Below, piece by piece: positions 26,224 to 26,972 of a stretch of DNA of 64,000 nucleotides (within the stretch, counting starts at the first letter, position 1; each line of letters begins with the position of its first letter). A model generated the notes under the pieces. It did no database searches and was not told where the DNA came from. It worked only from the letters and a program-made list of their open reading frames with translations. The position numbers and the translations under genes are program-made. Where the stretch lies: the NCBI RefSeq assembly GCF_013315695.1, contig NZ_CP054353.1, one strand, 5' to 3'. The DNA comes from Escherichia coli (GTDB lineage Bacteria; Pseudomonadota; Gammaproteobacteria; Enterobacterales; Enterobacteriaceae).

Positions 26224-26972
26224 GATGCACTCCCGACTGGCGTTTTCAGCCCGGAATAGTTCAACAGGCACCAGTTAGCCAGCGTCAGTATCTCTTCAGC
26301 CGCCAGCGCATCACTGCGGTATTCACCGACTGGTTGCTTAGCCGCCAGGCATTGAGCCATCGCTTCATCACGATGAATGAGTATTGGCAGTAATCGGCGC
26401 TGGCTTTGCAACCAAAGCTGGTAAATATCGTCCTGAACCTGACTGCCGATACGGAAGTCATTAATCAAAATATGCGCGCCATCCGGCAGCGCTTGCTGAT
26501 GCAGTCGGATATGGCAGTTGGCATCCACATTGACGATTGCCAGCGAGTGATCGCACAAACTCAGCAGCTGGTGGGTTATCTGTGAGGCATCACGCGGTAA
26601 GTCAATTAAAATCCACTGGTAACGCCCGCTGGCTTTTAGTTGCTGTAAGCCGGAGCAAATATCGCTCAGCCGGGTTTGCCAGTGCTGTGGATTTTCTTGT
26701 TCTTCAATGGATAACTGACCAAAAGGCAGCAAATCGAGCTGCGAGGTATAGCGCAACCCGGCGTCACGCCAGTCCTGGCCATCCAGCATAGCTCTGGCCC
26801 AGCCCTGACGGTGGGTAAAATCAACGTTAAATGACAGGCGCAACAAGTTGTCCGGGCAGGCATCGACCACCAGGACATTTTCTCCCAACATTTGTAATGA
26901 CCAGGCTAATGCGGCGGTGATGGTTGTTGTCCCCACGCCTCCCCGCACCCCCTGCAATCCCAGTACGGCCAT
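26220..26972 (-). CDS. bcsQ: Cellulose biosynthesis protein BcsQ (MinD/ParA-type ATPase), full length
   Basis: 250-aa ORF MAVLGLQGVRGGVGTTT…; codon 6 is TTG (Leu). Confidence 0.85.
   Translation of the reverse strand: MAVLGLQGVRGGVGTTTITAALAWSLQMLGENVLVVDACPDNLLRLSFNVDFTHRQGWARAMLDGQDWRDAGLRYTSQLDLLPFGQLSIEEQENPQHWQTRLSDICSGLQQLKASGRYQWILIDLPRDASQITHQLLSLCDHSLAIVNVDANCHIRLHQQALPDGAHILINDFRIGSQVQDDIYQLWLQSQRRLLPILIHRDEAMAQCLAAKQPVGEYRSDALAAEEILTLANWCLLNYSGLKTPVGSAS

Follow-up and report, generated by a model that had tools for sequence, protein, structure and literature searches.

In the laboratory strain K-12 the bcsQ gene carries a single nucleotide change in codon 6, which has been given as 'TTG/TAG (17 T>A)' together with its repair by Serra et al. 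(PMC5944007). Strain AR3110 is W3110 in which this stop has been replaced by a sense codon (PMC4287979), and AR3110 as well as the cellulose producer 1094 have TTG at codon 6 and encode a full-length BcsQ of 250 aa (PMC5944007; PMC4287979). A further report describes a convergent loss of bcs function in E. coli, with 74 of 76 common sequence types carrying loss-of-function mutations (PMC10881479).

We compared these systems with the same locus in a stretch of 64,000 nucleotides from E. coli (RefSeq assembly GCF_013315695.1, contig NZ_CP054353.1), the whole of which is called the window here. The bcsQ pseudogene of K-12 (b3534 in MG1655, and likewise in W3110) has the same location and gene order as the window gene, and the DNA next to codon 6 is identical. 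The damage shows the opposite pattern, however: K-12 has a stop in bcsQ but an intact bcsR, promoter region and bcsE, whereas in the window bcsQ is intact and the latter three are affected. Strain 1094 and AR3110 resemble the window in codon 6, in the length of BcsQ and in its intact N-terminal P-loop, but only in the window is bcsQ located 3´ of a truncated bcsR and an IS1 element and separated from its native promoter. Taking both parts together, we consider it very probable that the window carries the wild-type TTG in a natural, human-associated isolate and that its cellulose genes have been damaged instead by IS1 and a loss of 638 bp.

Read on the minus strand from position 26972, bcsQ starts with ATG GCC GTA CTG GGA TTG CAG GGG GTG CGG GGA. 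The translated open reading frame contains no internal stop over 250 aa and is unbroken at the N-terminal P-loop GGVGTTT (the protein starts with MAVLGLQGVRGGVGTTT). The product matches the BcsQ equivalog NF007460 of NCBIfam from end to end (540 bits, positions 1-250 of 250; cut-off 399 bits) and also lies above the curated cut-off of TIGR03371 (292.7 versus 157.85 bits). An earlier inspection of the letters alone (the sequence-only reading) had claimed a TTG at codon 6 and a full 250-aa BcsQ, and the strand reading, the uninterrupted frame and the full-length profile match all bear this out. It had also referred to a premature stop reported at this codon in K-12; direct comparison of the bcsQ genes revealed TAG in MG1655 (NC_000913.3) as well as in W3110 (NC_007779.1), in agreement with the literature cited above (PMC5944007, PMC4287979). 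When 66-167 nt around the start are aligned, the window departs from the two K-12 genomes in a single column, the second base of codon 6, and over its whole length the product differs from that of MG1655 only by *6L, M197I and E207Q. In MG1655 bcsQ is annotated as a pseudogene, with a translation reading MAVLG*QG.... The same TAG allele is treated differently in the RefSeq annotation of W3110, where a CDS of 242 aa starts from an internal GTG 3´ of the TAG (L007 29455-30183). In the window, bcsQ is located between bcsR and bcsA in bcsRQABZC; only the bcsR remnant lies upstream, and bcsA overlaps the bcsQ 3´ end (Table 1).

Table 1. Features of the bcs locus in the window, ordered by position.
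Feature	Position	Strand	Basis and remarks
bcsC, intact, 1157 aa	16687..20160	-	full length, no internal stop
bcsZ, intact	20142..21248	-	full length, no internal stop
bcsB, intact, 779 aa	21255..23594	-	full length, no internal stop
bcsA, intact, 872 aa	23605..26223	-	no internal stop, 4 substitutions compared with MG1655
bcsQ, intact 250-aa CDS, ParA/MinD-type ATPase of the cellulose secretion system	26220..26972	-	open reading frame and profile match
bcsQ codon 6, TTG (Leu), TAG in K-12	26955..26957	-	sole differing column compared with MG1655 and W3110
bcsR remnant, last 21 codons and stop, without start	26984..27049	-	BcsR model positions 23-42 of 42; PGAP partial, N-terminus missing
IS1, 768 bp, transposase in bcsQ direction, replaces 638 bp of the K-12 reference	27050..27817	-	alignment to MG1655
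bcsE remnant, codons 82-523, first in-frame ATG at 27827 (M85)	27818..29146	+	BcsE model positions 85-523 of 523
bcsF, intact, 63 aa	29143-29334	+	3´ of promoterless truncated bcsE
bcsG, intact, 559 aa	29331-31010	+	3´ of promoterless truncated bcsE

The IS1 lesion between bcsR and bcsE

The sequence-only reading had further described an IS1 lesion next to bcsQ that cripples the operon. This lesion is real and, at the level of the sequence, severe. Compared with MG1655 (L003 6064-6701), the 638 bp that are lost consist of 123 bp of bcsR, the intergenic region of 272 bp and 243 bp of bcsE. Codons 1-41 of the 62 bcsR codons are missing, the whole divergent promoter region between bcsR and bcsE is missing, and so are codons 1-81 of bcsE, the remnant of which, marked as partial by PGAP, has neither its native start nor its promoter. 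The inserted element, labelled as an IS1A family transposase by PGAP, has the terminal inverted repeats GGTAATGACTCC... and ...GGCAGCATCACC, encodes the insA-insB' transposase with its programmed frameshift and shares its sequence exactly with the window's two other IS1 copies (2591-3358 and 60488-61255). The copy at 2591-3358, between rcdB (yhjC) and yhjB, is a simple insertion with a 9-bp target duplication, AAAAAACAA. The target-site duplication of 8-9 bp that accompanies simple IS1 insertions is not present at the bcs copy, where the 9-bp flanks CTGTTCGCG and TTATTTTCA differ; its absence is explained by the associated deletion of 638 bp.

The 3.1-kb stretch from bcsQ across IS1 to bcsE is matched in one piece and at 100% in two records only, NZ_LR898874.1 (strain MSB1_4I, from a human rectal swab, Australia, 5.28 Mb) and NZ_OZ547117.1. 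These two are also the only ones in the complete-genome collection with the exact bcsE-side junction and with the exact pair of junctions, identical junctions being counted from single-piece probe matches only. The bcsR-side junction is used more widely: STEC346 carries a simple IS1 insertion at the identical bcsR base and in the identical orientation, with the 9-bp duplication CTGTTCGCG. The flanks of this insertion share only 98.2% identity with the window, and 3 bases of its IS1 are different, so that the same target has been used independently in the two strains. STEC346 was rejected as an ancestor of the window lesion on account of its unrelated background, and is an example of reuse of the site. 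On the other side, the IS1-associated deletion of EcPF16 ends in bcsE 10 bp from the end-point in the window, in the same AT-rich stretch.

Judged from these junctions, the most likely history would consist of two steps. The first would be an insertion of IS1 into the bcsR target CTGTTCGCG, as in the simple insertion of STEC346, and the second an adjacent deletion mediated by IS1, in which the other end of the element was joined to the AT-rich site in bcsE. A comparable event is seen at the xyl genes. Both MSB1_4I and NZ_OZ547117.1 have an IS1 inside xylG; the window lacks the adjoining 4,721 bp and has kept the other junction as it was, which points to an additional IS1-adjacent deletion that removed xylose genes. 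Lost are the 5´ part of xylG, xylF, xylA, xylB and the start of yiaB, and none of the 5,426 complete genomes matches the arrangement of the window exactly. The IS1 at 60488-61255 joins yiaB' straight to xylG'/ISEc45/xylH (61256-64000).

It might also be that an IS1 in bcsR recombined homologously with a second, directly oriented copy in bcsE, a route that we hold to be rather unlikely. It would likewise leave one IS1 between two truncated flanks and no target duplication, both junction sites have been used by IS1 in other strains, and the genome has at least 40 IS1 matches. Yet it requires two insertions and a recombination, whereas an adjacent deletion requires one insertion and one transposition event. 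In addition, the complete-genome collection contained no precursor in which IS1 had simply inserted at the bcsE junction, and an adjacent deletion by a single IS1 is directly documented at xyl in the same lineage. We therefore prefer insertion into bcsR followed by adjacent deletion.

Remaining bcs genes and the expected effect on cellulose

All genes from bcsQ to bcsC and both bcsF and bcsG are intact (Table 1). The published genetics show what the lost parts are needed for: cellulose is no longer secreted once bcsR is removed by a non-polar deletion, BcsQ is likewise essential, and maximal production depends on BcsE (PMC5727187), and non-polar deletions of bcsE, bcsF and bcsG in AR3110 are cellulose-negative (PMC4287979). 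Because of these requirements for bcsR and bcsE, a cellulose-negative phenotype is likely for the window strain. BcsR would be absent and bcsEFG would be promoterless with an N-terminally truncated BcsE, so that little or no cellulose would be made, while bcsQABZC, which has lost its native promoter, would depend at best on read-through from IS1. With bcsQ as intact as it is in the window, cellulose production is probably still not to be expected.

Some transcription of bcsQABZC may occur, for instance as low-level read-through. IS1's own promoter points towards bcsQ (CTGCCA-16-TATGAT, minus strand 27810-27783, found in a consensus scan), and outward promoters are reported to form at IS1 ends (PMC4287979, citing Prentki 1986). 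Read-through or outward transcription from IS1 might thus drive the intact bcsQABZC genes and result in a cellulose production that is independent of BcsR and either deregulated or reduced. Transcription of the IS1 transposase is co-directional with bcsQ, and the ribosome-binding region of bcsQ has been retained. Nevertheless, we give this scenario little credence. The non-polar bcsR deletion quoted above abolishes secretion, and the bcsE, bcsF and bcsG deletions are cellulose-negative, which are precisely the genes left without a promoter in the window. In the consensus scan no hybrid outward promoter was found at either IS1 junction, the only hits being the IS1 promoter itself and one site within bcsE. 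Also counting against read-through is the strong polarity that is classical for IS1 insertions, whichever way the element is oriented. A cellulose-negative phenotype is accordingly the expectation that we retain as likely.

The region 3´ of bcsG differs between strains as well. Between bcsG and yhjV (31013-33347) the window has a tandem array with 4.8 copies of a 483-bp ldr/rdl unit (type I toxin-antitoxin); five Ldr toxin CDS are annotated at the array in MSB1_4I, and a single ldrD is found in MG1655 and in W3110.

Origin and frequency of the TTG allele

For a single base a chance test is not applicable, and the frequency of the allele is the relevant measure. Among 5,426 complete E. coli genomes, an exact 33-nt probe with TTG matches 3,592 and the corresponding TAG probe 349. 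With an 81-nt probe the window version is found identically in 3,543 genomes and the MG1655 version in 348. The 33-nt probes register only if the central base matches, and about 1,300 genomes with other nearby SNPs are left unclassified by exact probes, which makes the allele counts lower bounds. We sampled 60 of the TAG matches evenly down the list; all are strains of 4.5-4.7 Mb, and most bear K-12 laboratory names (MG1655, DH5alpha, BW25113, J53, C600-type, TG1, MC4100, XL1-Blue, O16:H48). The stop thus seems to be peculiar to laboratory strains of the K-12 type, and TTG is the common, ordinary wild-type allele of E. coli.

The sequence-only reading had left open whether the genome is not K-12 or has a wild-type or repaired bcsQ. 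The comparison of the flanking genes answers this in favour of a non-K-12 genome with a natural wild-type allele. Across bcsZ-bcsR the window and MG1655 differ at 149 of 6,063 nt (97.5% identity) and across bcsE-ldr at 64 of 3,604 nt; the bcs genes are 97.5-98% identical, which corresponds to about 2.5% divergence. Of the two marks of the K-12 lineage, TAG at codon 6 and near-identity to MG1655, the window has neither. In contrast, positions 1-23608 (23.6 kb) are 100% identical to MSB1_4I, and the stretch 31008-60487 differs from it at 13 positions only. Twelve of these 13 are located at 32695-32930 inside the ldr repeat array, and this clustering suggests gene conversion or assembly differences between the copies. 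For bisC (biotin sulfoxide reductase) the MSB1_4I annotation records a frameshift (198194-200522), and the window has near-identical sequence at about 46786-49114. The window thus comes, judged from its sequence, from a natural isolate that is a very close relative of MSB1_4I, and it carries TTG because its source is such an isolate and not K-12.

Could the T at codon 6 be a sequencing or assembly error that masks a real stop? This is extremely improbable and was rejected, since two independent complete assemblies (NZ_LR898874.1 and NZ_OZ547117.1) show the same base, as do the thousands of genomes counted above, and the flanks contain no homopolymer likely to promote a substitution error. There is virtually no chance that the window comes from a K-12 derivative with a reverted stop or one repaired as in AR3110: only the TTG itself and an 81-nt neighbourhood that otherwise equals K-12 speak for such a derivative, but the divergence of about 2.5% from MG1655, which together with the near-identity to a 5.28-Mb human isolate argues for a natural allele, rules this out, and so do a total of 13 substitutions in BcsA and BcsB and five ldr copies in the window compared with one in K-12.

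IS1 at the bcsR-bcsE interval in E. coli

IS1 was detected in or beside bcsR/bcsE in some 57-69 of 5,426 genomes (about 1%); it occupies several different positions, with one and the same orientation in all cases seen. The simple insertions show three different target duplications: besides the one in STEC346, 14EC047 has IS1 in bcsR with the duplication CTTTAACG, and 2EC1 has an intergenic IS1 with the duplication CTTTCGCT. MIN12 stands for a group of about 25 genomes in which 782 bp, among them the intergenic region and 488 bp of bcsE, have given way to IS1, and in EcPF16 the deletion takes everything from bcsC to bcsE. STEC346, 14EC047, 2EC1, MIN12 and EcPF16 all resemble the window in the orientation of IS1 and in its location within or beside bcsR/bcsE; STEC346 has the exact bcsR junction of the window, and MIN12 and EcPF16 have, like the window, IS1-associated deletions into bcsE. 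They differ from it in their end-points and in their genetic backgrounds. Apart from the IS1 in bcsR, the annotation of STEC346 shows an internal stop in bcsG (L004 6974-8090), which amounts to two independent lesions in one bcs cluster.

The convergent losses in bcsRQABZC-bcsEFG described in PMC10881479 are among the closest parallels: the window likewise has an independent lesion of the cellulose/pEtN-cellulose system in a natural, human-associated isolate. The mutations named in the passages concerned are nonsense and frameshift mutations, and the text does not mention IS1, whereas the window has an IS1-associated loss of a promoter region and of two gene starts. A literature search for IS1 linked to bcsR or bcsE found no paper.

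It is conceivable, and we put this forward tentatively as something that may well turn out otherwise, that the bcsR-bcsE region is a recurrent target of IS1 and that insertion followed by adjacent deletion is a common and under-counted route by which natural E. coli convergently lose cellulose. The region may be a hot spot of insertion or a selected target. If this were true, the insertion in STEC346, the loss of 638 bp in the window, the loss of 782 bp in MIN12 and the loss from bcsC to bcsE in EcPF16 would be successive steps.

Codon 6 is in its expected wild-type state, and the IS1 deletion beside it is one more example of the repeated, independent loss of cellulose production in natural lineages of E. 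coli (PMC10881479). The only practical value of TTG at codon 6 is that of a quick marker for strains other than K-12. An intact reading frame of bcsQ or bcsA alone is no predictor of a cellulose-positive strain, and if IS1 does recur at bcsR-bcsE in the way considered here, surveys restricted to nonsense and frameshift mutations would overlook some of the cellulose loss in E. coli.
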